NCBI GenBank assembly: GCA_044238845.1
Contig: JBIICN010000004.1
Location: forward strand, 73,785 to 97,784
DNA length: 24,000 nucleotides
Source: Bacteroidia bacterium
Lineage (GTDB): Bacteria > Bacteroidota > Bacteroidia > B-17B0 > Aurantibacillaceae
Reading direction: 5' to 3'
In this document: positions 3,420-24,000 of the stretch, piece after piece
Layout: every line of letters starts with the position of its first letter
Position numbering within the stretch: position 1 is the first letter of the stretch
Position numbers and translations under genes: made by a program
The notes under the pieces: generated by a model
Databases searched by the model: none
The model's input: the letters and a program-made list of their open reading frames with translations, nothing else
Told to the model about the DNA's origin: nothing

Positions 3420-3503
3420 TGTCTTAGCGACACAAAAAGTACCCGAACACCTTAACTTATCGAATATAAATGATGGTTTTAATGACATTATTTCCTTTAA
3501 ATA

Positions 3504-4565: not shown

Positions 4566-4566
4566 C

Positions 4567-5331
4567 TCAATAGTTTTTAAGTATGTTCCTGAATAAACCA
4601 TCAAGGCCTACTTCTTTTTCTTTTCTTCCCGCTAAGCTATTAAATATATGCTCTGCTTTTTCTATTTCATTCAAGATAAATTCATTGATAGTTCTTTCAG
4701 CAGGATGCATATAACTTTCGTTCTTACCCGACTTTAAAGATATCAGATCTTTTATTCTTGTTTTCAATTCAGCATCAAAAGACAGCTCGTTAACCATCGT
4801 GATGAATACTATTGGAGGCACCGAATCTTTTTCTATGATCCACTTGCAAGCTAACGTTGCTCTTAACGCATAAAATAATTTCTTTAATTTTATTTCATCC
4901 CTGCCTTCTATTTCCGAAAAACTATTTTTTGCCATACCTAAATAGTGATACATGGTTGCTATAGGCGCAAAACATTTCTCTGAGTATTGTTTTAATAAAG
5001 CAGCTATGTTATTCTCTTCTGTATAAACTACCGGCGATTGAACTCTTTCTAGCAATGCGCCATTTGATTTCCACATCAGCTTTAAACATTTTTTGATATC
5101 CCAACCCGTTATATCCAATTCACCATCCTCCGACATAAATTCGATCGTATCTTTTTTATCTGATAAAGAAAGATACCAATCTAAGTCATGCATATAGATC
5201 ATTCGAACATCAAAATCGCTGTCCGGAGAAGGAAATCCCCATGCTCTAGAACCAGTCTCACACGCATAGAGAACCTTTACTTGATATTTCTGTTCTATGT
5301 CTTTTATTTGATCTTTTATTCTAGTTTCCAT
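4567..5331 (-). CDS. RlaP-type (PF10127-like) Pol-beta superfamily nucleotidyltransferase, short form
   Basis: 254 aa with the motif ETGSRAWGFPSPDSDFDVRMIY. It is a paralog of the next gene, and I recall this family as RNA-repair-associated. Confidence 0.75.
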   Translation of the reverse strand: METRIKDQIKDIEQKYQVKVLYACETGSRAWGFPSPDSDFDVRMIYMHDLDWYLSLSDKKDTIEFMSEDGELDITGWDIKKCLKLMWKSNGALLERVQSPVVYTEENNIAALLKQYSEKCFAPIATMYHYLGMAKNSFSEIEGRDEIKLKKLFYALRATLACKWIIEKDSVPPIVFITMVNELSFDAELKTRIKDLISLKSGKNESYMHPAERTINEFILNEIEKAEHIFNSLAGRKEKEVGLDGLFRNILKNY

Positions 5332-5347
5332 TTTTTATAGTATTTAT

Positions 5348-5480
5348 CAAAGGGCAAAAAAGTAAATAGAGTTTTTTTACTGAGCTATCTTGTTTTAACA
5401 AGAGCAGGAATTGAACCTACGACTTCCAAACATTTCTGGTTGCCGCTCTAACGAAGTATCTCTATTTTACGGCACCTTTG
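5348..5480 (-). ncRNA. Y-RNA-like element Yl-8 with a D-loop-permuted tRNA-like module
   Basis: The minus-strand read begins CAAAGG-U-GC-C-GUAAAAUAGAG-AUACUUCG-UUA-GAGC-G-(CCAGA AAUG UUUGG)-AAGUC. It continues GUAGG UUCAAUU CCUGC (T arm)-UCUUG UUAAAA CAAGA-UA-GCUC-AGU A7-CUCUAUUUAC-U6-GC-CCUUUG. The basal helices pair end to end. Confidence 0.6.
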
Positions 5481-5500
5481 AATTTTTTAATTTTCTTTCA

Positions 5501-6430
5501 TTAGTTTAAAGAGTTTGAAGCTTGATTTATTCTATATATTTCAGTCCTAAAGAGTGAGTTATACTGATTAATAAGGATTTGGGTCATCAATGGAAGTTTT
5601 TCGAATGTTTGCTTTGCATCTTCAAAATAGTAACAATAGTCAACGATAAAAAAACTAATAAGCCATTTTGATAGCTTCATTGTCAAAATACTTGTAGGCA
5701 AGTCATTTCCATCTGAATACATATTCTTAAATTGAAAAACAGAAACATTAGAAGGGTGAGTATTTAAAGATAATGAAGTGTATTGGCCATTAAACAAATC
5801 AGTGGCGCCAGCATTAGACATCATCTCATGCCAAGGTATACCGTGAGCCTTCTCGCCATTTATAATAACTTGCCATATAGCTTTATCAATATTACCTTGA
5901 GCATCTGGATCTAAATTCTGGTATGTCCTAGACATCTTTATAGCTTTTTTAAGCTCCTCAATTTGCAATCTCTCATTTTCACGTTTCTCAATATATTCTT
6001 GTTGTTTTGTTGGGAAACTTTGCCTGTATTTTAATCCACTTAGAACCCATAAAAGGTACTTAAAGGTCTTTTCATCTGCAGATTTGGAAACCCTATAAAT
6101 ATTATTAAAGTTACAAAAAGCCTCATACTGTGTTCTTACAAGACAAGAAAGCGCAAATGGATCATGCAAGTTCTCCATATTAAAATCACCAAGCTCATTA
6201 TAATAGTTTAATGATTGCATAAGATTCAGAATTGATAAATTCTTCATCGCTGTCATCTGAAATAGATACATACCATCTATATCTTCATTTGAACTTAGAG
6301 GTCGACCCTTTTGCGAAGAAATAATTTGAAATGCTGCATCAGTTACGAGTTTGTATGACTCCATTGTAATTTTTAAATCTTCAGGATAAAACAATCTGTG
6401 ATATTCTCTACGTAATTCTTCTTTTTCCAT
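5501..6430 (-). CDS. Hypothetical alpha-helical protein (no family recognised)
   Basis: The long ORF sits between rtcB and Yl-8. I prefer the ATG at 6430 (MEKEELRREYH...), 17 nt after the rtcB stop, because the track start at 6511 would overlap rtcB by 65 nt. Confidence 0.55.
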   Translation of the reverse strand: MEKEELRREYHRLFYPEDLKITMESYKLVTDAAFQIISSQKGRPLSSNEDIDGMYLFQMTAMKNLSILNLMQSLNYYNELGDFNMENLHDPFALSCLVRTQYEAFCNFNNIYRVSKSADEKTFKYLLWVLSGLKYRQSFPTKQQEYIEKRENERLQIEELKKAIKMSRTYQNLDPDAQGNIDKAIWQVIINGEKAHGIPWHEMMSNAGATDLFNGQYTSLSLNTHPSNVSVFQFKNMYSDGNDLPTSILTMKLSKWLISFFIVDYCYYFEDAKQTFEKLPLMTQILINQYNSLFRTEIYRINQASNSLN

Positions 6431-6446
6431 AACTATTAGTTTTTGA

Positions 6447-7874
6447 TTAATCTTCTCTACTTCCGTCATCAGCCATACGCACAATTTTAGGTATAAATTT
6501 AGCAATAACATCCACTAAATCTGTTTGTGCAGCCATAACGGTTTCTATATTTTTATAAGCCATTGGTGCTTCATCTAAGCCTGCGCCAATTAAAGTAACA
6601 CCATGGTCTTTCAAAATAGTTTGCATCTCGTTTTTAGTAATATTTTTAATGGCTTGTGTTCTGCTCATTTGTCTTCCGGCACCATGCGATGCGGAGTTGA
6701 TGGCATTCACTTCACCTTTACCTTTTACTAAAAATCCTGGTGCAGTCATCGATCCCGGAATAATTCCCATCACATCTTTCGATGCAGGTGTTGCTCCTTT
6801 TCTATGCACTATTACTTCTTGCCTGTTCCATGTTTCTTTCCATGCAAAATTATGATGGTTCTCTACTTTCGCTAATACCTGTCCGCCAATAGCTTTTGTT
6901 AAACGCTCATGAATAACTTCGTGACAAGCAGATGCATAATCACCTGCTAAATTCATGGCAATCCAATATTCCTGCCCTTCAGCACTATTCATATCCAGGT
7001 AAGCTAAGTTAGCGGCCTCTTTAGGAAGCTTACATAATTCTTTTGCCAGTTTGGTATAATGTCCTGCAACGGTTGCACCAAATCCACGTGATCCGGAGTG
7101 TGTTAACAACGAAACATATTTTCCTTTTCTAATATTTAATTTTTCATCATCGTTTTCAAATTCGATAATTCCAAATTCCACAAAGTGATTTCCTCCACCT
7201 GATGAACCTAATTGCGTAACTGCTTTATCGTGCAGGTTTTTTACAAAAGGCGTCATGTTAAAAGTAGAGTTATCCAATATACCATGTTCAGCTCTATATC
7301 TTCCATGCCATCCAGCACCAGCACCAAATTTTGTCCAGGCAATTAACTCTCTTTTATATTTTGCTTCATTTTCTAAGAAATGAGTTTCAGGAATATCATA
7401 AATAGATAAGGCCATTCTACATCCAATATCCACACCCACACCATAAGGGATGATGGCGTTATTGGTAGCTAATACTCCGCCAATTGGCAAACCATAACCC
7501 TGATGCGCATCCGGCATTAATGCACCGGCAACTGTAACAGGTAATTTCATGGCAACTTCCATTTGATCGATAGCGCCTTGTTCGATATGAGCTGCACCAA
7601 AAACCGAATAACTGTTTGGATTTTCAATTAAAGCAATGGTCTCTATATCTTTTGAAGCTGTGAACTCAATCAAAGCTTGAGCAACACCTTGCAAAAAAGT
7701 ATGGTCCAAATACTGAGACGGATTTTGCAACACATTAGAAAATAGGTCTAATGTTTTTTCTTCCGATGCCTCCGTAAAACTTTTTCTTATAGTTTTCAAT
7801 GCTTTTCCTATAGGTGCTCCTTCAGGGTATCCTAAATTTAAAAGTGTTTCTCCTGTGATATTTATTGTACTCAT
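6447..7874 (-). CDS. rtcB: RNA 3'-phosphate/2',3'-cyclic-phosphate ligase RtcB (copy 1, Rsr/Y-RNA context)
   Basis: 475 aa with the RtcB blocks MPDAHQGYGLPIGGV, GVDIGCRM, SSGGGNHF, THSGSRG, NHHNFAW and HRKGATP. Confidence 0.95.
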   Translation of the reverse strand: MSTINITGETLLNLGYPEGAPIGKALKTIRKSFTEASEEKTLDLFSNVLQNPSQYLDHTFLQGVAQALIEFTASKDIETIALIENPNSYSVFGAAHIEQGAIDQMEVAMKLPVTVAGALMPDAHQGYGLPIGGVLATNNAIIPYGVGVDIGCRMALSIYDIPETHFLENEAKYKRELIAWTKFGAGAGWHGRYRAEHGILDNSTFNMTPFVKNLHDKAVTQLGSSGGGNHFVEFGIIEFENDDEKLNIRKGKYVSLLTHSGSRGFGATVAGHYTKLAKELCKLPKEAANLAYLDMNSAEGQEYWIAMNLAGDYASACHEVIHERLTKAIGGQVLAKVENHHNFAWKETWNRQEVIVHRKGATPASKDVMGIIPGSMTAPGFLVKGKGEVNAINSASHGAGRQMSRTQAIKNITKNEMQTILKDHGVTLIGAGLDEAPMAYKNIETVMAAQTDLVDVIAKFIPKIVRMADDGSRED

Positions 7875-8362
7875 GATTGTTTATTTAATTTATTAGTTAC
7901 TCTTTTTTCAAATACTTCTTGTATAATTCGTTGTTCTTTAAATTCGTATACATCTTCATAAAACGATGTTACTAGTACTTTTTCTTTTGTGATCTTATAC
8001 AAGATCGGTAGTTTAAATCCGATGGATTGATTTTGCAGATAATTTACTATTTCTGCATCAAGATTGCATTCTATTGTGTTCCTGTTGTTATAGATGATGC
8101 CATACTCAAAATCAAATAAAGGTTTAAGTTCTGTTTCAATGGTTGGTCTCAACCTTTTATTAGAGCTATACAATATAAAACCCTTCTTGTCGTTTTTTTT
8201 CATGAAGTGCTTAATCCTTTTTTTTCTTAAAATATCTTTTATCCATAAAATAGCTATAAGCAATGCGATAACACCAACAATCCCAAGCACAGTTTTTGGA
8301 AAGGTTTTAATGATAAAGCAAGCTATAATTATCGCTGCTATATTTCCCGCTGTTTGTTTCAT
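7871..8362 (-). CDS. Small membrane protein (two N-terminal TM helices), unknown function
   Basis: 163 aa. The N-terminus IAAIIIACFIIKTFPKTVLGIVGVIALLIAILWI is hydrophobic, and its stop overlaps the rtcB start as ATGA, suggesting translational coupling. Confidence 0.55.
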   Translation of the reverse strand: MKQTAGNIAAIIIACFIIKTFPKTVLGIVGVIALLIAILWIKDILRKKRIKHFMKKNDKKGFILYSSNKRLRPTIETELKPLFDFEYGIIYNNRNTIECNLDAEIVNYLQNQSIGFKLPILYKITKEKVLVTSFYEDVYEFKEQRIIQEVFEKRVTNKLNKQS

Positions 8363-8458
8363 GATACAAATTAATAGCCTAAGTGCGCAGTGGAATTGAG
8401 TAGATAATAGATTTCTTTAAATTAGTTATAACTTCTTGATTTTGAGGCTTAAAATTAT

Positions 8459-8529
8459 AAAAGGGCAATAATATAACGAGAGCTTGTTAGTCGTTAAAAG
8501 CGAAGTAACTCTCATCAACGGCACCTTTT
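8459..8529 (-). ncRNA. Y-RNA-like element Yl-7 (minimal hairpin form, no tRNA module)
   Basis: AAAAGG-U-GC-C-GUUGAUGAGAG-UUACUUCG-CUUUUAACGACUAACAAG-CUCUCGUUAU-AUUAUU-GC-CCUUUU. It lies 2 nt downstream of Yl-6. Confidence 0.55.
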
Positions 8530-8531
8530 AT

Positions 8532-8605
8532 AAAAGAGGCGATAGGCCAGGATAGTTTTTGTTTTGCGTGACAGGCGAAGTAACTATACTGAACGGCACT
8601 CTTTT
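8532..8605 (-). ncRNA. Y-RNA-like element Yl-6 (minimal hairpin form)
   Basis: AAAAGAG-U-GC-C-GUUCAGUAUAG-UUACUUCG-CCUGUCACGCAAAACAAAAA-CUAUCCUGGCC-UAUC-GC-CUCUUUU. Confidence 0.55.
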
Positions 8606-8618
8606 TCTTTAATTATAT

Positions 8619-8939
8619 TTATTTGAAACTTTGTATGTCTCCTTTGTATTCACTTTCTATAGCTTTTCCATATATGGTATGTGTCCAACCGTTCTCATAA
8701 CCATGATTGTTTGCAATTAAAAAGCCTTTTGCAGGATCTGTTTTTACTATTTTATGGGCGTCGATCCATCGCCCTTTTACTTTACAAAATACAATGTCCT
8801 TTATGTTGTAATGTTCTTCTTTTTTAAAGGTGAGTAATGAACCGCTTTTTAATATGGGTAACATTGAGTTTCCGAAACATTTCATTTTTCCAGTGCCGGA
8901 GGTTTCGAGCTCCAGCTGTAATCTTTGATATTTATTCAT
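8619..8939 (-). CDS. Stand-alone S24/S26 (LexA/signal-peptidase-like) peptidase-fold protein
   Basis: 106 aa. GNSMLPILKSGSLL resembles the G-x-SM-x-P Ser nucleophile block. ...DIVFCKVKGRWIDAHKIV... provides a candidate general-base Lys. The layout is that of an S24 catalytic core without a DNA-binding domain. Confidence 0.5.
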   Translation of the reverse strand: MNKYQRLQLELETSGTGKMKCFGNSMLPILKSGSLLTFKKEEHYNIKDIVFCKVKGRWIDAHKIVKTDPAKGFLIANNHGYENGWTHTIYGKAIESEYKGDIQSFK

Positions 8940-8952
8940 TTTTGTTTTAATA

Positions 8953-8978
8953 AAAAGACCTGATAATTAAGGTCTTTT
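8953..8978 (-). terminator. Weak hairpin between tRNA-Lys and the S24-like gene (attenuator or processing site rather than a strong terminator)
   Basis: Stem aaaagacc / ggtctttt with a 10-nt loop. The U-tract is only the stem arm. Confidence 0.3.
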
Positions 8979-8979
8979 G

Positions 8980-9052
8980 TCGGCCTACATGGATTCGAAC
9001 CATGGACTCCCGTCTTAAAAGGACGGTGCTCTGCCAGCTGAGCTATAAACCG
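8980..9052 (-). tRNA. tRNA-Lys (anticodon UUU)
   Basis: Hand fold: CGGUUUA UA GCUC AGCUGGCA GAGC A CCGUC CUUUUAA GACGG GAGUC CAUGG UUCGAAU CCAUG UAGGCCG A. It has a C1-G72 pair and no encoded CCA. Confidence 0.85.
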
Positions 9053-9058
9053 ATGAAT

Positions 9059-9203
9059 GAATGGGCAAAATGTAAAAAAAGTTTTTTAGTGCTCTAACCA
9101 CTGAGCTACAAAAACAATCTGTCTCCAGAGTTGATTAAGGCAGGATTCGAACCTGCGACCCCTACGGTTATAATCGAAGTATCTTTTTTCTACGGCACCA
9201 TTC
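9059..9203 (-). ncRNA. Y-RNA-like element Yl-5 with a YrlA-style tRNA-like module (complete D arm plus T arm)
   Basis: The read begins GAAUGG-U-GC-C-GUAGAAAAAAG-AUACUUCG-...UAG-GGGUC-GCAGG UUCGAAU CCUGC. It continues ...UA-GCUC AGUGGUUA GAGC-A-CUA-A5-CUUUUUUUAC-AUUUU-GC-CCAUUC. Its 3' end is 6 nt from the tRNA-Lys 5' end. Confidence 0.65.
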
Positions 9204-9212
9204 AATAATTGT

Positions 9213-13938: not shown

Positions 13939-14010
13939 TTGTCGGAAATGGACTCGAACCACTATTCTCAGATTCAAACTCTGACGTCCTGCCGATTAGA
14001 CGATCCGACA
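13939..14010 (-). tRNA. tRNA-Gln (UUG)
   Basis: UGUCGGA UC GUCU AAUCGGCA GGAC G UCAGA GUUUGAA UCUGA GAAU AGUGG UUCGAGU CCAUU UCCGACA A. The U1-A72 pair is as in bacterial tRNA-Gln. Confidence 0.85.
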
Positions 14011-14020
14011 ATACATTCAC

Positions 14021-14051
14021 AAAAAAAGCCCGGTCGTTTTACGGATCGGGC
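14021..14051 (-). terminator. Intrinsic terminator abutting the 5' end of the tRNA array
   Basis: Minus-strand stem GCCCGAUC / GACCGGGC followed by UUUUUUU. The U-run ends 10 nt before tRNA-Gln. Confidence 0.6.
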
Positions 14052-14234
14052 TTATGTTAAAACATACCAATCCTGGTCAATCATTAAGTTGTGATTGAAA
14101 ACTATATATAAAACTATGCGGTCGTAAAGCCATTAATTTATTTTTTTGTTTTTTAATAAGGACTGCACCATTTCTTTTGTTTCGGCACAGTCCTTCCTCT
14201 CCGATGATACTTGCATTATTTTTTGTTTATTTAA

Positions 14235-14266
14235 TAAAAAAGCCCGGTCTTATTGAAGACCGGGCT
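14235..14266 (-). terminator. Intrinsic terminator (minus strand)
   Basis: Perfect 11-bp stem agcccggtctt / aagaccgggct with a 4-nt loop and a U-run on the minus strand only. Confidence 0.7.
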
Positions 14267-14367
14267 GCTATCAGACGCGCTGATACATACGATCTCCTTT
14301 CAGGAATATCCCGGTATAAAATAAAATAGGGGTTGCGTACTTCGTTTCATGTTTTTTTCTTTTAAAT

Positions 14368-14398
14368 AAAAAACCCCGATTCATCATCGGGGTTTTAA
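14368..14398. terminator. Bidirectional intrinsic terminator
   Basis: Stem aaaaccccgat / atcggggtttt with a 5-nt loop, flanked by A and T runs. Confidence 0.65.
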
Positions 14399-14509
14399 AA
14401 TATTTTATGTTTTAATAAAAAATAAATTACTGACCCCATAAGCACAATAGCGGCGAATGCCCTATTGGACTGAACTTTTGGCGATATGTAAAATAATTTT
14501 TCATGTGTT

Positions 14510-14716
14510 TTTTATAATTTATGTGACAAATGTAAATCATTTTTTTTGATCTCCACCTATTATTTTAAAAATAAATTTTAATAATAATTTGTTTTTATTT
14601 ATTGTGTGCTCTGTACATATTGATTTTACTGATGATTCAGGGGCTAATTAAAATTACTATAAATTGAAAAATAATTCATTACACTGAGTGAACTATACTT
14701 TTAAATTAGTAATCTG
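14510..14716. repeat. Direct repeat copy 1 (~205 bp, AT-rich), overlapping the last codons and stop of the AAA/M41 gene
   Basis: Collinear with 19099-19306. Shared anchors are ttttataattt, aaatgtaaatca, ctattatttt, ataaatttta, attgattttact, ataattaaaat, ataaatt, ttacactgagtgaa and ttaattagt. Anchor spacing is 171 versus 170 nt. Confidence 0.7.
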
Positions 14717-16717
14717 TTTTTTTAGGATAGATGAAAATGAAAAATAGTTTTCTTTTTTCTTAAATCCTTCTTCATTGATCCAGCTCTCAGTTGCGTATTT
14801 CCTAACAAAATCAGCTATTCCGACTTCTTCTATTTTGTGATTTTCAGTTAAGTATTCAGATAGTTTAAGGAGTAATAATTTATTTTTTTGTAGTATTTCT
14901 TCCGCTTCCTGTTCACATTCATTGATCAAGTGCAGAGCTTCCTGTTTATGTTTCTCTCCCATAAAAAAGTACTCATTATTATTTGGTGCAGAAACAGCAA
15001 TGGAAATGGGGTCTGATCCCATTGCATAATACTTGATAGCTTTATTTGCCAAATTGGTTGCGTTCTCAATATCAGAACAAACACCCGAAGATGTGTTCTC
15101 TTCTCCAAAGATCATTTTTTCGGCTACATAACCTCCTAATGAAATAATGATTTCTTTTTTAAGAATATCTCTGGTCAGCAAGCCGTCCGGTGAGTTTACC
15201 ATACAAAACCCATCGCAGCCATCAGAGGCAGATTTGGACACTATGAGTGATGGAAGAATCTTTAATGTCATAACAGCCAGTACTGCGTGACCAGATTCAT
15301 GAACGGCAGTGTGTGCTTGAAGATCTTTATCAACGGTTCTTCTTAACGTGTCAATTTTAAGCAATACTTTTTCCTCGTAAATATTAAGCACGCAATTTTG
15401 TTCGTCTTTAAATACAAATACATACTTGTCGTCATGATATGACCATTCAACATTGGTTACCTTCAGGTTTTTGCCTATCACTTCAATGGCAATTTTACTT
15501 ACCCAGGTTTCCACATAATTTTTTATGGTTGTTAAAACAGGTCTGGTGCCTTGTGCTGGAAAAACACCTTCTTTATAAACCAAGTCGTGAACAGATGCAT
15601 GATAACTGATCTCAAAATTGAATTGTGTTTTTATAAACACATTGATACGTTGAAGTTCTCTTTTAATTAATTCTTTAAAGTTCTCATTTTTAAAAGCCCT
15701 GTAGATAATGTGATTATTTCCTAATCGTGCTATTTGTTCTGAACGAAATCTTTTCTTTAAAGCAGATTTGATATTGGTAATATTTATTTTAAGAGTATCC
15801 TCGTGTAGTTCGTCTGCGCTTATATCAGGATTGATGGAATGACTCATTCCATAAGCTTCATCGAGATTGCCTAAAACAAAAATGATGGCTTTAGATAGAT
15901 CTAACTCTTTAAGTGCACTTCTTGTTTTTATTCCCCTCACCAGAAGATCAGTAATTCCTTTTAGATCAGCCTTTAAAATTTCTTGCTTTAAAGATTCGCG
16001 AATGATATCATCATTATTTGTTAGATAAAATAGACCATCAATAAAGTCGGAGGATAAAAAATAGTTTTTATCAAGTGTCTCGTTTCTATTTTGATTCTCG
16101 AAGTAAAAACTTTTAAAGATCTCTAGGAATGTATCTTCATTTTTTGTCACGATACCGTTTTCTATTTCCACACCTTGCTCTTTAGCTTTTAAAAGGTTAA
16201 TTAAACAGACATCTGCACGTTTTACATAAAATGCGTTGTTATACGGGATGTAGTTAATGCGACCGCTATCAATCAAGTCCCAAATAACTCTTAATTTATC
16301 TTTGCCTAATTCTTCTCCATTTTTATCTATTGTGCGGGCAAATTGAAACTCGTCGAGACAGATCATACATGGTTGTTCATGAAAAAATTCTAGGTCATCT
16401 GTCAATGTACTTTTAAACCAGGATGCTGAATCCGATTCAAATTCGCCCATATCCATTTGCGCATAGAGTTTTTTATATTCCAGTAATTCAACTAGTTTTT
16501 TTACAAGAGCGGTTTTGCCTGAGCCAGTCATGCCCCAAAGATTAATAACCAAAGGTCTTAATTGCGCCTGCGGGAATAGATACCATGCTGAAACTAAATT
16601 CATCACTTCATCAATGATTAGATCAAGACCTATGAAGTGAGTTTTTAGTTCATTACTTATTTCACTTATTTTTTCTTTCTTCAGGAGTATCTCCTGATGT
16701 AATTTATTATGTTCCAT
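14693..16717 (-). CDS. Soluble P-loop ATPase fused to an FtsH/M41-like zinc metalloprotease domain
   Basis: It has Walker A (WGMTGSGKT) and Walker B (MICLDEF). The C-terminal domain carries HESGHAV (HExxH) plus LGGYVAEKMIFG and SDIENATNLA, resembling the FtsH blocks LGGRAAE and NDIE.AT. No TM segment is present. I prefer the ATG at 16717 (MEHNKLHQ...), which overlaps the prfH stop by 11 nt. Confidence 0.8.
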   Translation of the reverse strand: MEHNKLHQEILLKKEKISEISNELKTHFIGLDLIIDEVMNLVSAWYLFPQAQLRPLVINLWGMTGSGKTALVKKLVELLEYKKLYAQMDMGEFESDSASWFKSTLTDDLEFFHEQPCMICLDEFQFARTIDKNGEELGKDKLRVIWDLIDSGRINYIPYNNAFYVKRADVCLINLLKAKEQGVEIENGIVTKNEDTFLEIFKSFYFENQNRNETLDKNYFLSSDFIDGLFYLTNNDDIIRESLKQEILKADLKGITDLLVRGIKTRSALKELDLSKAIIFVLGNLDEAYGMSHSINPDISADELHEDTLKINITNIKSALKKRFRSEQIARLGNNHIIYRAFKNENFKELIKRELQRINVFIKTQFNFEISYHASVHDLVYKEGVFPAQGTRPVLTTIKNYVETWVSKIAIEVIGKNLKVTNVEWSYHDDKYVFVFKDEQNCVLNIYEEKVLLKIDTLRRTVDKDLQAHTAVHESGHAVLAVMTLKILPSLIVSKSASDGCDGFCMVNSPDGLLTRDILKKEIIISLGGYVAEKMIFGEENTSSGVCSDIENATNLANKAIKYYAMGSDPISIAVSAPNNNEYFFMGEKHKQEALHLINECEQEAEEILQKNKLLLLKLSEYLTENHKIEEVGIADFVRKYATESWINEEGFKKKENYFSFSSILKKQITNLKV

Positions 16718-17348
16718 GTTTTTTTTCTTTTTTAAAATCCTTTCCTGTGTATACACGTTTTGGATTTCCTCTTTCGAGTTCGTTATGATTTTGCCACATT
16801 GATTGTAAATTCTTTTCAATGGATGTGATTTGCCATTTCATAAAAAGTACTTTCAATCTTTCGGTAGCTGATTTTTTATTTTGAAGTTGTGAGCGCGAGT
16901 CGTTTGCCATGACTTGTAAACCAGAAGGCTGATGGATGGCCCTTACAGCTGATTCTACTTTATTTACATTTTGTCCACCAGGCCCTGAAGACCGCATGGT
17001 TTGATAAACAATATCTTTTTCATCCCATTTTGGTAAAACCGATTCATCGTAACAATGAATACCAATAAACCAGTTCTTTCGTTTATGAAATTTACGATAT
17101 GGACTTTGTGCGATCCAGAGTAAACTTCCGTCCCAACTCTCCGCTAATGAACCCGCATATTTTCCATGCAATTTTACGGTCGCCGAAAATAAGGTTCCAT
17201 TCTCATCTGCAGGAACGCGTTCTATGACTTCATGTAATAGGTTGTATTCTTTTGCTTCTTTTAATATTTCTTTTAACGCCATGGCAACTGCAAGACAGCA
17301 TTCTGCCGGACCTTTACCTGATGTTATCTGTATTATTTTTGTTTCCAT
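16707..17348 (-). CDS. prfH: Peptide chain release factor H (PrfH)
   Basis: 213 aa with the GGQ motif in SSGPGGQNVNKVESAVR. It has the short RF-H-type architecture and sits immediately downstream of an rtcB paralog. Confidence 0.9.
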   Translation of the reverse strand: METKIIQITSGKGPAECCLAVAMALKEILKEAKEYNLLHEVIERVPADENGTLFSATVKLHGKYAGSLAESWDGSLLWIAQSPYRKFHKRKNWFIGIHCYDESVLPKWDEKDIVYQTMRSSGPGGQNVNKVESAVRAIHQPSGLQVMANDSRSQLQNKKSATERLKVLFMKWQITSIEKNLQSMWQNHNELERGNPKRVYTGKDFKKEKKHGT

Positions 17349-17360
17349 TTTTTTGTTTTT

Positions 17361-17390
17361 AAAGAGTCTTTCAAATTTGAAAGACTCTTT
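17361..17390. promoter_or_regulatory. Perfect 30-nt palindrome between rtcB2 and prfH
   Basis: aaagagtctttcaaa|tttgaaagactcttt has 15 nt per arm, beginning 2 nt after the rtcB2 stop and ending 12 nt before the prfH ATG. Confidence 0.5.
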
Positions 17391-17392
17391 TT

Positions 17393-18796
17393 TTAGCTTT
17401 TATTCATCCTTACTATTTTAGGCGTGAATGATCCTTCAATCTTAACTAGTTGTTGTTGGTTGCTCATAACAGTTTCAATATCCTTATAAGCTAATGATGC
17501 TTCCTCAACACTGCCACCGATCAGTTTTATTTTATTCTCTGAAAGAATGTTGTTCAGTGCCGATTTAGAAATGCTTTCTCTTGCTTCTTTACGTGACATT
17601 TTTCTGCCTGCACCATGTGATGCTGAGTTTAATGAACCTTCTGCTCCCATACCACTTACGATGTAACCATTGCTGCTCATACTTCCGGGAATAATTCCTA
17701 GTTCGCCTTTTGAAGCTGGTGTGGCACCTTTGCGGTGAACGATCAGTTCTTGTTCATCATGTATTTCTTTCCAAGCAAAATTGTGATGATTCTCAACTTT
17801 ACATATCGCTTCAAGCCCCATCACGCGTTCCATGTTTTTATGAATTACATCGTGGCAAGCTTTTGCGTAATCACCGGCTAAGTTCATCGACAACCAGTAT
17901 TCCTGTCCCGCTTCTTCATCCATATTAAGCCATGCCATCGATTGCATTTCGCGCGGTAGTTTACATTTCTCTTTGGCAATTTTTGTATACATCGCCGCAA
18001 TAGCTGCACCCATTCCTCTTGAACCACTATGTGATAGCAAACCAATATACTTTCCAGGAGCAATCCCAAGGTTATTGTCGCTCTGAATATTCACATCTCC
18101 GAATTCCACAAAGTGATTTCCTGTGCCTGATGAGCCCAATTGATACCAGGCTTTTCCATGTAGGCGTCTTAATAATTCGGTTGATTGAAATTCTGGACGT
18201 TCCAGTACTTCATGGTCTACTTCAAAATCGAGTGTGCCTTCGTTACCAAAATGCGTATAGCGTCTTAACGCTTTTTGAAGATCATATTCTTTTTTCTGAA
18301 TATAATTTTCAGGCAGTGCATAAATGCTTAATGCCATACGACAACCTATGTCAAGTCCTACACCAAACGGTATCACTGCATTTTTTGCTGCTAATACTCC
18401 GCCAATTGGCAAACCATAACCATGATGAGCATCCGGCATCAAAGCACCTTTTACGGAGATCGGTAATCTCATTGCTGCTTCCATTTGCAGGATAGCATTT
18501 TGTGAGATCTGTCTTTGTCCATAAATTGTAAAGTCGCCTGTATTCTTGAGCATATGAACTTCATAGTCGGTTTTCATTTTTGGTTTTCCAACAAGAGCTC
18601 TGGCCAAAGGCATCAGGTATTCATGCTCTAAGTAAGTTTCAGGATCTAAAAGAACGTTATTAATAATTTCTAATTTTTCTTCATTTGAAACATGTTTGTA
18701 ATGTTTCGTCATTATATTGATAGCAACACTTTTTGCTATATCCGAAGGGAAATCTACTTTACGTAAATGTTTTCCCTTCAATCGGTTTTTTCCCAT
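17393..18796 (-). CDS. rtcB: RtcB-family RNA ligase, copy 2 (PrfH-associated)
   Basis: 467 aa with the same catalytic blocks as copy 1 (MPDAHHGYGLPIGGV, GLDIGCRM, GTGNHF, HSGSRG, NHHNFAW, HRKGATP). Confidence 0.95.
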   Translation of the reverse strand: MGKNRLKGKHLRKVDFPSDIAKSVAINIMTKHYKHVSNEEKLEIINNVLLDPETYLEHEYLMPLARALVGKPKMKTDYEVHMLKNTGDFTIYGQRQISQNAILQMEAAMRLPISVKGALMPDAHHGYGLPIGGVLAAKNAVIPFGVGLDIGCRMALSIYALPENYIQKKEYDLQKALRRYTHFGNEGTLDFEVDHEVLERPEFQSTELLRRLHGKAWYQLGSSGTGNHFVEFGDVNIQSDNNLGIAPGKYIGLLSHSGSRGMGAAIAAMYTKIAKEKCKLPREMQSMAWLNMDEEAGQEYWLSMNLAGDYAKACHDVIHKNMERVMGLEAICKVENHHNFAWKEIHDEQELIVHRKGATPASKGELGIIPGSMSSNGYIVSGMGAEGSLNSASHGAGRKMSRKEARESISKSALNNILSENKIKLIGGSVEEASLAYKDIETVMSNQQQLVKIEGSFTPKIVRMNKS

Positions 18797-18981: not shown

Positions 18982-19006
18982 AAAAAACCCGGCTTATAAA
19001 CCGGGC
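18982..19006 (-). terminator. Intrinsic terminator ~185 nt upstream of the rtcB2 start (leader or attenuator position)
   Basis: The minus-strand stem CCCGGUU / AGCCGGG has 7 bp including one U-G pair that is a C-A mismatch on the plus strand. It has a UAUA loop and is followed by UUUUUUGUUUG. Confidence 0.6.
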
Positions 19007-19098
19007 TGAAAGTATTGATATTAGCTTATCCGGCTTAAGTGTGCTTATTTAAGTTTAATGCTAACATAGTTTCTCTTTCTTATGAATTTGGTTGTTTA

Positions 19099-19306
19099 TT
19101 TTATAATTTGTGATGCAAATGTAAATCAAATTTTTTATTCACCAACTATTATTTTTGAAATAAATTTTAAGTAGGATAAGATTTGTTTTTTTATATTCTT
19201 TGAAGTCATTGATTTTACTATGAATTCGGAGCATAATTAAAATCAATATAAATTATAAAATAATCTTTACACTGAGTGAATATTCTTTTTTAATTAGTTA
19301 AATGTG
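19099..19306. repeat. Direct repeat copy 2 (~205 bp)
   Basis: See copy 1. It lies in the divergent intergenic region between rtcB2 and the M48-like gene. Confidence 0.7.
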
Positions 19307-19447
19307 TTTGAAATAGAATTTAGGTGAAAGCAAGACAATAACGAATTATGTATCATTAAACCTTTTTGTTCATAATCATTAAAAAAATGATTCATCTATA
19401 ACCTTAACATAATATTTGGTTTGATGAAAAATCATTAAATTACTGTC

Positions 19448-20659
19448 ATGAATCTACAACCATTTGATTATCATACAAAGCTTCGAAGCAACCTTAAAGG
19501 TCAGAAAAAGACTTGGGATTGGTTCTCATCAATTAAAGTAAAAGACGAGCAATTGAAAGAGTTTAAATCAAACTTATTGAAGAACACATATCGTCTTGAT
19601 AAAGAAAGCAATCTTGAGTTATATGAAAAAGTTCAAGTAGCAAAGGATAAACTAGGATTGAATATTGATGTGACCATTTATCAAGCACAGAACTCAGTTG
19701 ATAACAATGCAGGAATTTCTTACTTACCAGGAGAGGCTCATATTGTTCTTTCAGGTCAAATAATGAAACTGCTAACTGGTGATGAACTTCTTTCTATAAT
19801 TGCTCACGAGTTATCACATGTTCGTTTATTTACTATTGAAAATTCAGAATTTGAAGTAGCAGATCGTATTATTACTTCGATTGCGAATGATTATAGAAGT
19901 GAAGATGTTTACATTGAAACAGCTCGTTTATTTAGACTATATATGGAATTATATTGCGACAGAGGCTCCTTATTGGTTACTGATAGTATAGACACTGTTC
20001 TCTCGGGCTTGATAAAAATAAACACAGGACTTGATAAAGTATCAGTAGAAAGTTATCTGAAACAGGCTGAAGAAATATTTGTTGCTGAGAAAGCTAAATC
20101 CGAGTATCAAACACATCCAGAAAATTATATTAGAGTTAGAGCTTTGAAACTCTGGGAAACTGAAAAAGAGAAATCAGAAAAGCAAATTAGAGACATGATA
20201 GAGGGTGATATTCAACTTAACGGCTTGGATCTCTTTAAACAAAATAAGATAAAAGATTTGACCTTTAGTTTGATTAAACTTCTACTAAAGCCCAAATGGA
20301 CAAGAACAACAGCAGTTCTAAGTTTGGCAAAACAATATAAAAGCGATTTTAAAACTGATGCTACAATTGTAATCAATGATGAATTAGTAAACACTATAAG
20401 TTCTTTATCCAAATCAGTTAAAGAATATTTATCTTATGTCTTACTTGATTTTGCGCTTGTTGATCCAACACTAGAGGATGTTCCCATGGGATTTGCTTTT
20501 CAATTGGCGGAAGATTTGACATTAAAAGATTTCTTTAATGAAGTTGTGAAGAAAGAATTGAAATTGGGAGAACGTAAATTGTCTGATTTACATAAAAAAG
20601 CAGCCAAAGCATTATCTGAAATAAAAGAATCAAATCAAGAACATATTTACGAAGACTAG
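19448..20659 (+). CDS. M48-like zinc metallopeptidase (soluble)
   Basis: 403 aa with the HExxH motif in IIAHELSHVRLF and the downstream block QTHPENYIRVRAL, resembling the M48 third-ligand region. No TM helices are evident. Confidence 0.7.
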   Translation: MNLQPFDYHTKLRSNLKGQKKTWDWFSSIKVKDEQLKEFKSNLLKNTYRLDKESNLELYEKVQVAKDKLGLNIDVTIYQAQNSVDNNAGISYLPGEAHIVLSGQIMKLLTGDELLSIIAHELSHVRLFTIENSEFEVADRIITSIANDYRSEDVYIETARLFRLYMELYCDRGSLLVTDSIDTVLSGLIKINTGLDKVSVESYLKQAEEIFVAEKAKSEYQTHPENYIRVRALKLWETEKEKSEKQIRDMIEGDIQLNGLDLFKQNKIKDLTFSLIKLLLKPKWTRTTAVLSLAKQYKSDFKTDATIVINDELVNTISSLSKSVKEYLSYVLLDFALVDPTLEDVPMGFAFQLAEDLTLKDFFNEVVKKELKLGERKLSDLHKKAAKALSEIKESNQEHIYED

Positions 20660-20661
20660 AC

Positions 20662-23600
20662 ATGGAACCTATAGTAAAAAATAATTTTGTTGCGTTTTTG
20701 AATGAAGGCATTGAAAATGGTGGTTTTCATAACGATGATATTATTGCCATAGCAATACCTTTACTACAAGAAGTATTGTCGTTTCATGAGCAAGGGAAAG
20801 TTGCGCCATTGGAAGGATTACAACATATACTTATTACAAATGACCTATTAGATATTGACGAAAATTTTATTTCATCGCCAAAATATAATAATAGGAAACT
20901 ATCTGAAATATCACAGCCTATAAGTAAAGTGTTTGATATTCTTGATGAAACCAAACAAACTACAAACGTGGAAGAATCCCATATTAAGGAAACTACTCTT
21001 TCAATTCAATTAGAAAAGGATAAGGAAGTAACTAAGCCAGTATATTTACCAGGATATCTTTCATATGAATTTCTACTTGGGCATCATGATGCGCTATCTG
21101 ATATTTTTGTGCTTGGATTAATCATTGGCAGTTTGGCTGCCGGACTAGATCTGAATAGTGAAGATGACTTAAAAACCTTTGTAGCTAATAGATCTGGGTT
21201 AGTTCATTTAAACTCTAAAATCCATCCTACCATTGCAAACATTGTTATGGAGATGACTGAGTTAGACAGAAAGAAAAGAGCAAGGGATCTTCATGAAGTA
21301 ATAGAAAAGCTTAAAAACTATCGTGACTATAATCCTGAAAAGGAAATTGATTTAACTTCATTAGAAGGGTTTAAAAATCAAGATATTTCAACAAGAAGTA
21401 AATGGATTTTAAATAAATTGAAGAGCAGACTTTTTGATATAAGTAGAAGAAACCGATTGCTGTATTTTAAAACCAGTTCAAAATTCTTGAATCTTACTGT
21501 TGCTTCAGTGCCAACTACTTTAAATTACAGAAATATTGATCCAAATAGTTTATTTATTTGGAATGATGATATTTCTTCAAGAATTAAAAGTGGAAAGCAA
21601 ATACCTCTATCTAAATTCTTAAAAACAGAAGACAATCCTTATATCCCTTCAATTTTAGATAAAATCAGAAGTGAATCAACTCGTGATATAAATGAATATG
21701 GATTTAGTCAACTAAGATTAATCATCTGCTCCTTGAGTTGGTATAATTTGAAAGATGATAAATATGAAAAAATTAATTCCCCTTTATTATTAGTTCCTGT
21801 TGAAGTAAAAAAGAAAAAAGGAGTTAAAGATCAATATACACTTGATATAACAGGAAACGAAGCAGAAGTAAATCCTGTATTAGTTTATTGGTTAAGAGAG
21901 TTATATGACATTAAACTTCCTGACTCAATTGTTTTGGATGATTTTGAAATGAGTAAATTGTATCAAAGTATTCAAGATCAGATCAAATTAAGTAATTCAG
22001 GAATTTCAATTGAGTTTATTGATAAGCCAAGGATAAAACTAATCTATAGTTTAGCAAAACAAACCCTATCTCAATTTAATAGAAAGTTAAAGCGAAACAA
22101 AAGTTTAAGTCACTATAGAGAAGTTGATTATTCGTATCAACGTGAAAATTTTCAACCTTTAGGACTAAGTATATTCAAGCAGAAAATAGAACCTGCTGCT
22201 TCATATCTTGAGTTTTTGATTAATGAAGATGTTAAACTAAACACCTATAACATTACTGATACAGAAAAAGAAAGAAGTTTATTTACGTTAGTAGACGAAG
22301 GTAATGCAAATCCATATTTGTGGGAATTTGATACTTGTAATATGACGCTAGGTAATTTTAATTACAAAAAAATGTCCCTAGTTAGAGATTATAATGAAGT
22401 AATTGATGAAAACATAAGTGATCCTATTTTTGAACAATTATTCTCGGATCAGCCGAAAAATATTTTAAATAAGGAAGATGTCGAGAAAGAAAATTTAAAG
22501 GAAAAATATCACATTATTTCTTGTGACCCAACGCAATCAAACGCTATAAAAATGGCCAAGAGTGGGGATAGTTATATTATTCAAGGGCCTCCGGGCACAG
22601 GAAAATCTCAAACTATCACCAATTTAATCGCTGATTACATAGCGAGAGGAAAAAGAGTATTATTTGTATGCGAAAAACGAGCGGCTATTGATGTTGTTTT
22701 TTATCGTTTAAAACAACAAAAACTGGATGAGTTATGTTGTCGTATCCATGACTCACAAGCTGATAAAAAAGAATTTATCATGAACTTGAAGGAAACGTAT
22801 AATGACTTCATGAAAAATAAATTCAACTTAACTGAAATTGAAAATGAACGAAATAAAATTATTTCTATCATTGAAAACGAATTAAGGAGTTTAGAAAAGT
22901 ATAACAATACTGTAACAAAAGAGTTTGAAGATGTTGGAACATCGTTCTTAAAATTAATAGAACGTCTTATTGAACTAAAGACCAATCATGTTAACGTTTC
23001 GTTTGATATGGAAGAATTAGTTCCAGGCTACAAAGAGTGGGTTTCAAATGGCAATCTCATCCAGCAGTTGTCAAAACAACTAAAAGAAATTAATCACGAA
23101 CCATACATTTCTTCTCACCCAGCAAGTTTGCTTAATAAAGAAGCATTAACGCAAGAACATCCCATAAATTATATTAAACAACTTGCTGAACAACTAGAAG
23201 ATCTTTTTGAATTTATAAGTAATGAGTTAAGTAAAGCAAATATTCCTGACAATTTAAAGGAACATTTTTTAATTATCAAGGAATTAGTGACGGATGCTTA
23301 CAGATTTAAACCATATGCAGAGAATGGAAATTTATTCCTTTACGACAGCAACAATCCATCAACTAAACAATTTGAAGGAGTTGTATATGATTATAAAGAA
23401 CTTAAAAATAAAGTAGAGCAGGCCAGTAAAAAGAATGGTAATTGGAAGAATAAATTTTCTGAAGGTGATCTGCAATCTGCTAAAGAGCAATTAACTGCTT
23501 TTCAAAGTTCCATATTTTCATTTCTAAATCCAGGGTTTTGGAAACTAAAAAAGACAATTAAGTTTTCGTATGATTTTTCAAAACATGATGTAAAACCTAG

Positions 23601-24000
23601 CTTAAATCAAGTTTTAGAGGAACTTCAAGCTGAGTATAATTTAATTAATCAATCAAAGGACTTAGAAAAGAAAGCAGAGTTTACTTATAAGATTAATAGC
23701 ATTAGTGGAACGTGGGATACTATTGAAAATTTCAGAAAAGAAAAAAGCAAGCCTACTTTATCTTACTTAAGTTCTGTTAATCAGGAACAATTGATTCTTG
23801 AACTATGCGATTTAAAAGACAAAGTTGACACAGCCCATAAATTACTTGATAAATCAATCAGCGATTATGAAAATAAAAACATAATTGATCTCTTAGAAGA
23901 TATTGAAAATATTAAACTATCCTTAAAGTCATTACCTGAAATACTGCCATTATTAAATGAACTGAACGAAACTTCGAGAAATTTTCAAGCATTTATCAAG
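20662..24000 (+). CDS. Large DUF4011-type SF1 (Upf1-like) helicase, N-terminal 1113 aa (continues past the right edge)
   Basis: Absent from the ORF track because no stop falls in the window. It is in frame from the ATG at 20662, 2 nt after the M48 stop. My translation is MEPIVKNNFVAFLNEG... It contains the DUF4011-like block SRRNRLLYFK, then Walker A IIQGPPGTGKSQTITNLI at about 22580-22630, followed by a long coiled-coil-like insert. Confidence 0.8.
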   Translation, partial: MEPIVKNNFVAFLNEGIENGGFHNDDIIAIAIPLLQEVLSFHEQGKVAPLEGLQHILITNDLLDIDENFISSPKYNNRKLSEISQPISKVFDILDETKQTTNVEESHIKETTLSIQLEKDKEVTKPVYLPGYLSYEFLLGHHDALSDIFVLGLIIGSLAAGLDLNSEDDLKTFVANRSGLVHLNSKIHPTIANIVMEMTELDRKKRARDLHEVIEKLKNYRDYNPEKEIDLTSLEGFKNQDISTRSKWILNKLKSRLFDISRRNRLLYFKTSSKFLNLTVASVPTTLNYRNIDPNSLFIWNDDISSRIKSGKQIPLSKFLKTEDNPYIPSILDKIRSESTRDINEYGFSQLRLIICSLSWYNLKDDKYEKINSPLLLVPVEVKKKKGVKDQYTLDITGNEAEVNPVLVYWLRELYDIKLPDSIVLDDFEMSKLYQSIQDQIKLSNSGISIEFIDKPRIKLIYSLAKQTLSQFNRKLKRNKSLSHYREVDYSYQRENFQPLGLSIFKQKIEPAASYLEFLINEDVKLNTYNITDTEKERSLFTLVDEGNANPYLWEFDTCNMTLGNFNYKKMSLVRDYNEVIDENISDPIFEQLFSDQPKNILNKEDVEKENLKEKYHIISCDPTQSNAIKMAKSGDSYIIQGPPGTGKSQTITNLIADYIARGKRVLFVCEKRAAIDVVFYRLKQQKLDELCCRIHDSQADKKEFIMNLKETYNDFMKNKFNLTEIENERNKIISIIENELRSLEKYNNTVTKEFEDVGTSFLKLIERLIELKTNHVNVSFDMEELVPGYKEWVSNGNLIQQLSKQLKEINHEPYISSHPASLLNKEALTQEHPINYIKQLAEQLEDLFEFISNELSKANIPDNLKEHFLIIKELVTDAYRFKPYAENGNLFLYDSNNPSTKQFEGVVYDYKELKNKVEQASKKNGNWKNKFSEGDLQSAKEQLTAFQSSIFSFLNPGFWKLKKTIKFSYDFSKHDVKPSLNQVLEELQAEYNLINQSKDLEKKAEFTYKINSISGTWDTIENFRKEKSKPTLSYLSSVNQEQLILELCDLKDKVDTAHKLLDKSISDYENKNIIDLLEDIENIKLSLKSLPEILPLLNELNETSRNFQAFIK

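Follow-up and report, generated by a model that had tools for sequence, protein, structure and literature searches.

The rtcB operon on a 24,000-nucleotide (nt) stretch of DNA from a member of the Bacteroidia (contig JBIICN010000004.1; hereafter the window, in which coordinates count from the first letter and minus denotes the gene strand of the rtcB operon) joins genes for the RNA ligase RtcB and peptide chain release factor H (PrfH) to a third gene, encoding a soluble protease predicted to couple a Clp/Hsp100-type AAA+ ATPase to an FtsH-type M41 zinc protease domain. Judged by gene order and junctions across genomes, this gene appears to be a genuine, translationally coupled part of the Bacteroidota RtcB(-PrfH) operon, with a linkage that is both real and old. 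The RNA-damage response served by the RtcB-PrfH operon probably includes a protein-destroying step. The best explanation, which we put forward tentatively, is that the coupled protease would be the protein-clearing arm of an RNA-damage response switched by an upstream open reading frame (uORF) leader.

The open reading frame (ORF) listing confirms the three same-strand genes that an earlier note, made from the sequence alone, had placed at 14693-18796 (Table 1). The first two are separated by a 44-nt spacer, which contains a perfect palindrome; an A-run, not a T-run, comes after it on the gene strand, and it is terminator-like for the opposite strand only. The protease gene sits inside a longer ORF (14693-16819) whose first ATG lies at 16717. 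As the same note had claimed, prfH and the third gene overlap by 11 nt: the junction sequence AAACATGGAACATAATAAA holds the stop codon of the former and the start codon of the latter within one 11-nt stretch, an arrangement that we read as probable translational coupling.

The protease is a composite of recognizable modules. Its N-terminus is an amphipathic helix, after which follow a predicted Hsp100-D2-type AAA+ large domain (residues 51-343, with a variable insert at about 151-270), a D2-small domain (344-414), a small beta linker (415-462), the M41 zinc protease domain (463-640), and a C-terminal tail. All of the motifs previously quoted for this gene are present in the translation, namely GMTGSGKT (62-69), LDEF (121-124), HESGHAV (473-479), LGGYVAEKMIFG (527-538), and DIENAT (549-554). 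Walker A (GMTGSGKT) is followed by a short aromatic segment that replaces the GYVG pore loop, by Walker B (LDEF), and by the insert of about 120 residues; past the insert lie sensor 1 (GNLDEA), an arginine-rich RFRxEQIARLGNNH segment, and the D2-small domain with GTRP (sensor 2). The C-terminal part comprises the three-stranded beta linker and the M41 domain, in which HESGH and the SDIE aspartate are found.

Assignment of the protease domain to the FtsH type, and the lack of a membrane anchor, had been proposed before and are upheld here. Peptidase_M41 (PF01434) matches at 6e-19 (69 bits against a cutoff of 29.9), a profile of 17 homologues retrieves YME1/FtsH chains from the PDB over residues ~437-663 (best 4e-19), and D549 occupies the third zinc ligand position beside HExxH, as in M41 enzymes. 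No transmembrane segment was found in the protein: the highest Kyte-Doolittle mean over 19 residues, 1.63, is reached at the HExxH helix. The divergent P-loop ATPase of the earlier note is likewise an intact P-loop ATPase, but its class appears to be Clp/Hsp100 D2-type AAA+ (HCLR clade) and not FtsH-like. The same 17-homologue profile aligns the ATPase region with D2 modules of ClpC, ClpB, Hsp104, ClpE, and CLPB/Skd3, while Foldseek searches with an AlphaFold2 (AF2) model of moderate quality (predicted local distance difference test score 72, predicted template modelling score, pTM, 0.46) return FtsH, YME1, Ycf2-FtsHi, and ClpB-D2/ClpC, the protease domain reaching a template modelling score of 0.77 to 2di4. 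Pfam gives weak Torsin, AAA_14, AAA, and ClpB_D2-small matches to the ATPase region, and NCBIfam gives ClpV1 and ClpK; the protein scores only 60 bits against the cutoff of 600 of the FtsH equivalog TIGR01241, and 18.7 against the 21.2 of the classical-clade AAA family PF00004.

The relationship to both parent groups is thus partial. With FtsH, YME1, and AFG3L2 the window protease has in common the order AAA+ then M41, the HExxH plus aspartate zinc ligands, and a superposable protease domain; unlike them, it has no transmembrane helices, an Hsp100-D2-like ATPase, an insert of ~120 residues before sensor 1, and a beta linker. With the D2 modules of Clp/Hsp100 proteins (ClpB, ClpC, ClpE, Hsp104, CLPB/Skd3, ClpV) its N-terminal helix, Walker A, sensor-1/arginine region, and D2-small domain can be aligned; unlike them, it is a single ring module that has no N-domain, D1, or M-domain, replaces GYVG by a shorter segment, has no identified ClpP-docking loop, and carries its protease fused in cis. 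To judge from the available descriptions, a D2-type AAA+ module with a ~120-residue insert fused to M41 appears to be an architecture without earlier description.

Across 32 relatives (29-53% identity), Walker A and B, N284, R331, R392, H473/E474/H477, and D549 are invariant. Because the ATPase and zinc-site residues are invariant, the protein is very probably an active ATP-dependent protease, though not an FtsH orthologue, and by homology it presumably forms a ring enclosing a hexameric degradation chamber. The insert, the linker, and the C-terminal tail are the least conserved parts, as would be expected for a substrate-recognition surface under diversifying pressure. When the ATPase part alone was searched against 1.84 billion representatives, 1321 matches were obtained (787 at less than 1e-30). 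Their lengths lie almost without exception between 650 and 780 amino acids (aa), and M41 is present in nine of ten that were sampled, so that the Hsp100-D2/M41 fusion constitutes a stable, sizeable family. A housekeeping FtsH mis-annotated without its anchor is ruled out: more than 100 homologues conserve the complete N-terminus, the ATPase belongs to another clade, and the family is a large one whose members are uniform in length.

The two partner proteins are assigned with differing precision. RtcB matches the Pfam family RtcB (PF01139) at 2e-76 over residues 104-460 (258 bits against a cutoff of 27), its translation carries MPDAHHGYG, GTGNHF, HSGSRG, HHNF, and SHGAGR, so that the metal-binding and His-GMP motifs are all present, and the nearest solved structures are archaeal and Thermus RtcB (~1e-25). 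It also bears an N-terminal extension of ~100 residues. PrfH exceeds the cutoff of TIGR03072 (IPR017509, release_prfH) with 246.1 bits against 166.65, matches Pfam RF-1 at 1e-23, and carries its GGQ motif as SGPGGQNVNKV; it is without the RF1/RF2 N-terminal domain, the alignment covering RF2 residues 118-322 only, and phmmer aligns it to the solved structures 9mor (a 231-aa PrfH; 4e-59) and 7sa4 (E. coli PrfH; 4e-45). The pair had been named rtcB2-prfH. The PrfH assignment and the RtcB family stand, but RtcB falls under the cutoff of the PrfH-associated equivalog TIGR03073 (release_rtcB, 'RtcB2'; 142.1 bits against 271.8), its best NCBIfam match, PRK09588, is likewise below cutoff, and because TIGR03073 is missed the label 'rtcB2' describes context only.

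Compared with the E. coli RtcB2-PrfH module (PMC9304027, PMC9223846, PMC13166195), the window shows the same rtcB-prfH gene order, GGQ, and RtcB catalytic motifs, and adds the coupled AAA+/M41 gene, the RtcB extension, a tRNA-array island, and a uORF leader. The closest solved PrfH is the PrfH-CT of Capnocytophaga gingivalis (9mor; PMC12829566), from the same phylum as the window and alignable over residues 1-207. PrfH-CT proteins have 225-250 aa and a long basic C-terminal tail with a conserved basic helix (PMC12829566); at 213 aa the window PrfH lies outside this group, and after residue 207 it holds only KKEKKHGT, a short Lys-rich end whose coding sequence overlaps the start of the protease gene.

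Linkage was assessed in a GTDB scan with one genome per species, which yielded 53 close-subfamily loci (46-96% identity), nearly all of them from Bacteroidota. The search patterns are specific to this subfamily and the counts hold for it; 51 loci, including the window, are informative (L003, L019, and L047 hand-corrected from the tblastn table). The order rtcB-prfH-protease occurs in 20 of the 51, rtcB-protease in 19, and in 12 neither rtcB nor prfH adjoins the protease gene. RtcB is directly upstream in 39 (with PrfH between in 20 of these), and RtcB, not PrfH, is the more constant partner. Junctions are close in both arrangements: prfH and the protease gene overlap or are at most 1 nt apart in 17 of the 20 three-gene loci, and a gap of 2-7 nt separates rtcB from the protease gene in 14 of the 19 loci without PrfH, while the RtcB-PrfH gap ranges from 4 to 138 nt. 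In a neighbour-joining tree the PrfH-containing loci form one large clade and the deepest branch, and the PrfH-less loci a Cytophagia-like clade.

Independent samples give the same picture. Among metagenome contigs of the close subfamily, RtcB is upstream in 12 of 14 informative cases and PrfH in six, and three look-ups anchored on PrfH (55-59% identity) returned the three-gene set each time. The set recurs at 35% protease identity in locus L125, where positions 203-5497 encode RtcB, PrfH, a 197-aa protein with HELGHHHD, the AAA/M41 protease, and KptA/Tpt1. Chance adjacency or a species-specific operon fusion is ruled out by these counts and by the junction distances. The linkage with prfH and rtcB that the earlier note had made its test is therefore conserved, tight, and ancient, with two qualifications: PrfH is dispensable to it, and the wider family occurs without RtcB or PrfH. 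The protease gene is absent from the three Flavobacteriia PrfH-CT operons inspected (a C. gingivalis-like contig, C. canimorsus, and Chryseobacterium), which have other small neighbours, mostly unannotated, with a faint TPR match in that of Chryseobacterium. These are in line with the accessory genes of PrfH-RtcB in the text of Burroughs & Aravind (2019), which names TPR, Pol-beta NTase, ZnR, and charged helix proteins and no protease.

One way to account for the linkage is a protease dedicated to PrfH, which would degrade the truncated, untagged nascent chain as a counterpart of tmRNA with ClpXP/FtsH or of Vms1 with Cdc48 and the proteasome. The overlapping or abutting junctions and the stability of the three-gene set over 46-96% protease identity, with its recurrence at 35%, fit such a role, as does the fact that release by PrfH adds no degradation tag and leaves an untagged product (PMC1586002); the need for further factors after PrfH is described as unclear (PMC9304027). 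The tmRNA tag with ClpXP/ClpAP/FtsH/Lon, RqcH Ala-tails with ClpXP, and the release-factor-like Vms1 of eukaryotes with Cdc48/proteasome (PMC6514570) likewise set a rescue factor beside an AAA+ unfoldase-protease. However, no tagging step is evident in the window operon, where the coupling is by operon and not by degron, and the protease is just as tightly coupled to RtcB in the 19 loci from which PrfH is missing. Moreover, distant family members have neither gene beside them, characterised PrfH systems function without the protease (PMC9304027), and general cellular proteases already handle released fragments. Since PrfH is dispensable for the linkage and the wider family lacks RtcB and PrfH, nascent-chain disposal is probably one candidate role only and not the general one, and exclusive service to PrfH seems to us unlikely.

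Evidence on when the operon would be expressed comes from its upstream region. A direct repeat of ~220 nt (73-78% identical) flanks the three-gene cassette on both sides, one copy in the promoter region of the rtcB operon and the other beginning within the last 26 nt of the protease gene and facing a tRNA array. The repeat core is a Bacteroidetes-type promoter (-33/-7), TTGAC/TTGG-N17-19-TTGATTTACATTTG. Related loci totalling 826 kb contain it 18 times, without exception on the island strand. When the next call downstream is a recognised island gene, its distance ahead of rtcB, thg1, or rnl is 257-386 nt; ahead of tRNA arrays it is ~330-530 nt. Because other species also have this core in front of rtcB, thg1/rnl, and tRNA arrays, a duplicated promoter is preferred, and a mobile-element end or att site is judged less likely.

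Between this promoter and rtcB lies a short uORF with the consensus M-L-V-L-x-x-H-T/I-K/P-P/K, 10 or 14 codons long, which a strict pattern detects in 34 of 37 loci, 190-320 nt ahead of rtcB, but in only 3.8% of random windows; two more loci (L040, L041), outside the strict-pattern count, have by eye a uORF with Glu at position 3, and the PrfH-CT loci examined have none. The uORF stop codon overlaps UUAAGCCGG, which can pair with the 5' arm of a downstream terminator-like hairpin at 19007-18986 (~-10 kcal/mol). From this layout, a ribosome at the uORF stop should favour termination and failed translation should favour read-through, making the rtcB leader a candidate translation-sensing attenuator that corresponds to no Rfam family. 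The tRNA array has a leader of its own (14011-14540, minus), in which the 25-codon uORF is followed by the ORFs MKRSTQPLFYFIPGYS and MYQRV, each ending in a stop codon, and terminator-like hairpins come after the leader ORFs at 14396-14370, 14266-14241, and 14052-14015; weak, sub-threshold Rfam matches to Trp and Phe leader families also fall here and count as hints only. Peptides related to its uORF precede thg1-rnl operons and tRNA arrays in other loci (L003-5, L009, L011, L012, L017, L052). That the leader codons mirror the array anticodons was considered (~11-12 of 24 match, against ~31% expected) and is treated as unproven because related leaders keep the peptide rather than the codon set.

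Taken together, these elements would fit the tentative reading with which we began. Damage to tRNA or rRNA would halt translation of the leader uORF and, through the arrangement of uORF, antiterminator, and terminator, permit read-through into the operon. PrfH would then free the peptide from the damaged ribosome and RtcB reseal the RNA, as shown for homologues of both proteins, and the co-made protease would unfold and degrade proteins that make repair futile or impossible. The prime candidate substrate would be the attacking ribonuclease itself or some other protein held fast on the damaged RNA or ribosome, because this fits RtcB-only operons, WYL cassettes, and phage copies (both discussed below) alike; the untagged polypeptide released by PrfH would come second, since it fits the prfH overlap and the missing tag but not the loci lacking PrfH.

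A number of observations weigh against this reading. How the protein is built, that its catalytic residues are intact, and that its linkage is conserved are direct observations; the rest draws on sequence and predicted structure, from which a substrate is not deducible, and the AF2 model is only moderate (pTM 0.46), the oligomeric state being taken from homology. The protease is not required for PrfH/RtcB chemistry, since E. coli RtcB2-PrfH protects against colicin E3 with no protease gene (PMC9223846, PMC9304027) and the three PrfH-CT operons have none either. That 12 of the 51 loci and most distant relatives are without nearby RtcB or PrfH indicates that the protease can act in other settings, and it is not obvious how, in general, a single protease could recognise ribotoxins of diverse kinds. 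As to the leader, eight close sequences contain no compensatory pairs that would give its structure covariation support, and its logic varies by clade: helix geometry differs in the Cytophagia-like clade, and in some clades the 3' end of the uORF falls within the 5' arm of the terminator.

Beyond the close subfamily, relatives of the protease populate other neighbourhoods. Among 33-36%-identical members, three of four look-ups show a WYL(-WCX) gene immediately upstream of the protease gene and in the same orientation, with BREX (BrxL, PglZ), McrBC, DUF2779, PDDEXK, and integrase genes as further neighbours. Of 49 informative distant metagenome loci, 26 have WYL within two upstream genes, only L125 has RtcB adjacent, and about a dozen look phage-like. 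In IMG/VR, 182 contigs, many of 200-500 kb, encode full-length relatives (27-40% identity); the 80 inspected (L148-L227) have a tRNA cluster within 6 kb in 16 cases, RtcB in one, and WYL in none. The protease family as a whole thus belongs to conflict-associated gene neighbourhoods. The cassettes of WYL, protease, and small ORF (33-39% identity; L061, L062, L065, L092-L146) make up an undescribed candidate defence or stress module in their own right.

The recurrence of WYL genes raises the prospect of a regulatory protease, whose substrate would be an island repressor (WYL or another labile regulator) and which would make induction self-reinforcing or self-limiting, in the manner of ImmR/ImmA, DdrO/PprI, or CapH/CapP. 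The placement of WYL upstream of distant relatives, the presence of a WYL regulator in the window and 12 related loci, and the Anabaena tRNA-array/rtcB repressor, which is thought to be degraded under translation stress by a pathway that is not named (PMC10272220), are in keeping with this. Yet a neighbouring transcription factor usually just controls its operon, only 13 of 55 loci in the RtcB-linked subfamily have WYL no farther than 8 kb away, against RtcB adjacent in 39 of 51, the phage copies have no WYL beside them, and an unfoldase-protease of 674 aa would be a costly means of cleaving one repressor; we consider the proposal improbable.

To about the same degree we doubt that the protease is an independent conflict effector, a defence or counter-defence weapon that degrades phage or host proteins or arrests growth and merely shares mobile, co-regulated islands with RtcB and PrfH, with which it would not cooperate. 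Its relatives do stand beside BREX, McrBC, DUF2779, and integrases and in huge phages, the right flank of the window carries M48/SprT-like and DUF4011 SF1-helicase genes, and PADLOC-DB v2 gives a weak local match to the ClpB-like DolB (1.6e-6, residues 12-101). However, co-residence alone does not predict a fixed order with overlapping or 2-7 nt junctions, the same gene order persists across ~40 species and two deep lineages, and in PADLOC-DB v2 no defence system was matched and RtcB and PrfH had no match at all. Very improbable is a turnover or timer function, in which the protease would clear away PrfH, RtcB, or its dead-end intermediates once repair is over and so limit off-target ligation or premature release: the genes are co-transcribed with coupled stoichiometry, but the members in WYL cassettes and phages that lack RtcB and PrfH are left unexplained, no degrons are evident in the sequence, and systems without the protease tolerate PrfH and RtcB.

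The protein-clearing role that we favour is set within a wider locus, since the rtcB operon forms one end of an island of ~16 kb that lies nearly all on the minus strand (Table 1).

Table 1. Coordinates of features in the 24,000-nt window
Feature	Position	Strand	Description
RlaP-like gene	3504-4604		
RlaP	4567-5331		
DUF5677-like gene	5501-6511		
Second RtcB	6447-7874		Same N-terminal extension; 50% identical to first RtcB
Unannotated ORF	within 3504-11833		163 aa
Non-coding region downstream of Ro60/TROVE gene	8484-10315		1.2 kb of non-coding DNA follows Ro60/TROVE-vWA gene
S24-like ORF	8619-8939		106 aa
tRNA-Lys-UUU	8979-9052		
Ro60/TROVE-vWA	10316-11833		
WYL-WCX transcription regulator	11934-13082	plus	Probable start 12072; Pfam WYL 6e-13, WCX 6e-11
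Nine-tRNA array	13104-14010	minus	Directly downstream of operon; Gln-UUG, Leu-UAG, Ile-UAU, Pro-UGG, Phe-GAA, Arg-ACG, Pro-UGG, His-GUG, Tyr-GUA, in order
tRNA-array leader uORF	14427-14504	minus	25 codons, MKNYFTYRQKFSPIGHSPLLCLWGQ and stop
Repeat copy 2	14493-14721	minus	Faces tRNA array
AAA+/M41 protease gene	14693-16717	minus	674 aa, predicted soluble; Pfam, NCBIfam, PDB profile search, AF2/Foldseek
prfH stop/protease start overlap	16707-16717	minus	ATGGAACATAA; holds TAA of prfH and ATG of protease gene
prfH	16707-17348	minus	213 aa; peptide chain release factor H, short form without long basic C-terminal tail
Palindrome	17361-17390	.	Perfect, 15+15 nt, AAAGAGTCTTTCAAATTTGAAAGACTCTTT; in rtcB-prfH spacer
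rtcB	17393-18796	minus	467 aa; first gene of operon, RNA 3'-phosphate/5'-OH ligase; ORF listing and Pfam
Terminator-like hairpin and U-run	18982-19008	minus	In rtcB leader
rtcB leader uORF	19035-19067	minus	10 codons, MLALNLNKHT and stop
Repeat copy 1	19082-19309	minus	Promoter region of rtcB operon; TTGG-N19-TTGATTTACATTTG at 19116-19129

Of 47 loci scanned, 18 have an array with the same anticodon set, sometimes also holding Lys-UUU and Asn-GUU, no more than 8 kb from the protease gene (the window, L002-5, L009, L011-13, L017, L021, L023, L025, L033, L035, L036, L038, and L052). With tRNA genes as dense as we estimate for a typical bacterium, a stretch of this length should hold ~0.2 of them. 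tRNA-Ile(UAU) is uncommon in bacteria, and several of the tRNA species in the array are known anticodon-nuclease targets. The array also includes a tRNA-like element (13678-13761, minus) without an ARAGORN call and with a sub-threshold 35.5 bits to the tRNA-Sec model, which may be a degenerate or long-arm tRNA. Divergent from the island is the WYL-WCX gene, orthologues of which lie within 8 kb in 12 further loci and whose product is a candidate regulator of the island. In loci whose protease gene is without RtcB (L024, L028, L044, and L049, at about 6960-7095; L001 and L034), a single tRNA-Arg(ACG) separates the protease gene from a divergent WYL gene, and in Chryseolinea the protease gene comes after genes for Thg1, a 2OG oxygenase, Band_7, an ADP-ribosylglycohydrolase, and a methyltransferase-like protein.

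The remaining island genes are of the kinds that define RNA-repair neighbourhoods as Burroughs & Aravind use the term (a ligase, end-modifying enzymes, a nucleotidyltransferase, and a scaffold): the window has two RtcB, two RlaP, and a Ro60/TROVE protein, and related loci add Thg1, Rnl-type ligases, an HD-kinase, KptA, Band_7, and a 2OG oxygenase. Downstream of the Ro60/TROVE gene, the region 8484-10315 probably holds several Y-RNA-like genes. It contains six copies of a 25-46 nt repeat (CGAAGTA...ACGGCA) and three tRNA-like T-arm motifs; hints come from sub-threshold YrlA matches (9072-9189 at 29 bits; 9372-9466) and a near-threshold Flavo-1 match (9659-9741, 39.4 bits against 42), while at gathering thresholds Rfam identifies tRNAs only over the window. 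The right flank (19448-24000, plus), divergent from the rtcB promoter, encodes an M48/SprT-like HExxH protein of 403 aa and, 2 nt after it, a DUF4011/SF1 (AAA_11) helicase of >1100 aa that runs off the window; the two look like a defence-type gene pair and are not conserved in related loci.

Parallels to this organization exist elsewhere. In Anabaena, a silent tRNA array and rtcB have common promoter repeats and are induced by translation stress (TrcR; PMC8421152, PMC10272220), and the TrcR regulon and the Salmonella rsr-yrlBA-rtcBA operon (RtcR; PMC7790460) resemble the island in their tRNA array, RtcB, and Ro-type parts, which shared promoter repeats co-regulate and which are induced by translation or tRNA damage. 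The counterpart of the Anabaena repeats would be the ~220-nt promoter repeat before both the rtcB operon and the tRNA array. The regulators differ, TrcR being an RHH protein and RtcR a CARF/sigma-54 activator, whereas the candidates in the window are the WYL protein and the units of leader uORF and terminator; an M41 protease is not reported in the TrcR or RtcR systems. In the papers on PrfH and RtcB that we consulted we found a two-gene module or non-protease accessories and no characterised three-component version, as the earlier note had supposed, and we found none that links M41/FtsH-like proteases with RtcB, PrfH, WYL, or defence islands, although an earlier listing in Burroughs & Aravind (2016) is possible.

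A still broader picture, of doubtful standing, can be drawn for the Bacteroidota, in which a three-armed response would replace (tRNA array), repair (RtcB, PrfH, RlaP, Ro), and remove (protease, acting on the attacking ribonuclease or on proteins stuck to broken ribosomes and tRNAs) under a leader-peptide switch, its protease family serving also as weapon or shield in WYL cassettes and in huge phages with tRNA arrays. The uORF leaders, together with the promoter found before both the operon and the tRNA array, suggest a circuit that would induce repair when translation itself fails. To our knowledge, no pathway other than PrfH-RtcB is known to rescue nuclease-cut ribosomes and re-ligate them, and existing accounts give it two proteins; a three-component RtcB-PrfH system with an AAA+/M41 protease would be an addition to this module. 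The co-translated unfoldase-protease would be a candidate answer to the fate of the untagged peptide, to the factors that act after PrfH, and to the toxin that would otherwise undo the repair. Finally, the protease family, with about 800-1100 clusters at 50% identity in addition to the 182 viral contigs, is large and unstudied, and its predicted pairing of a Clp-type motor with an FtsH-type chamber, free of a membrane anchor, would be relevant to the evolution of AAA+ proteases and to phage-host conflict.

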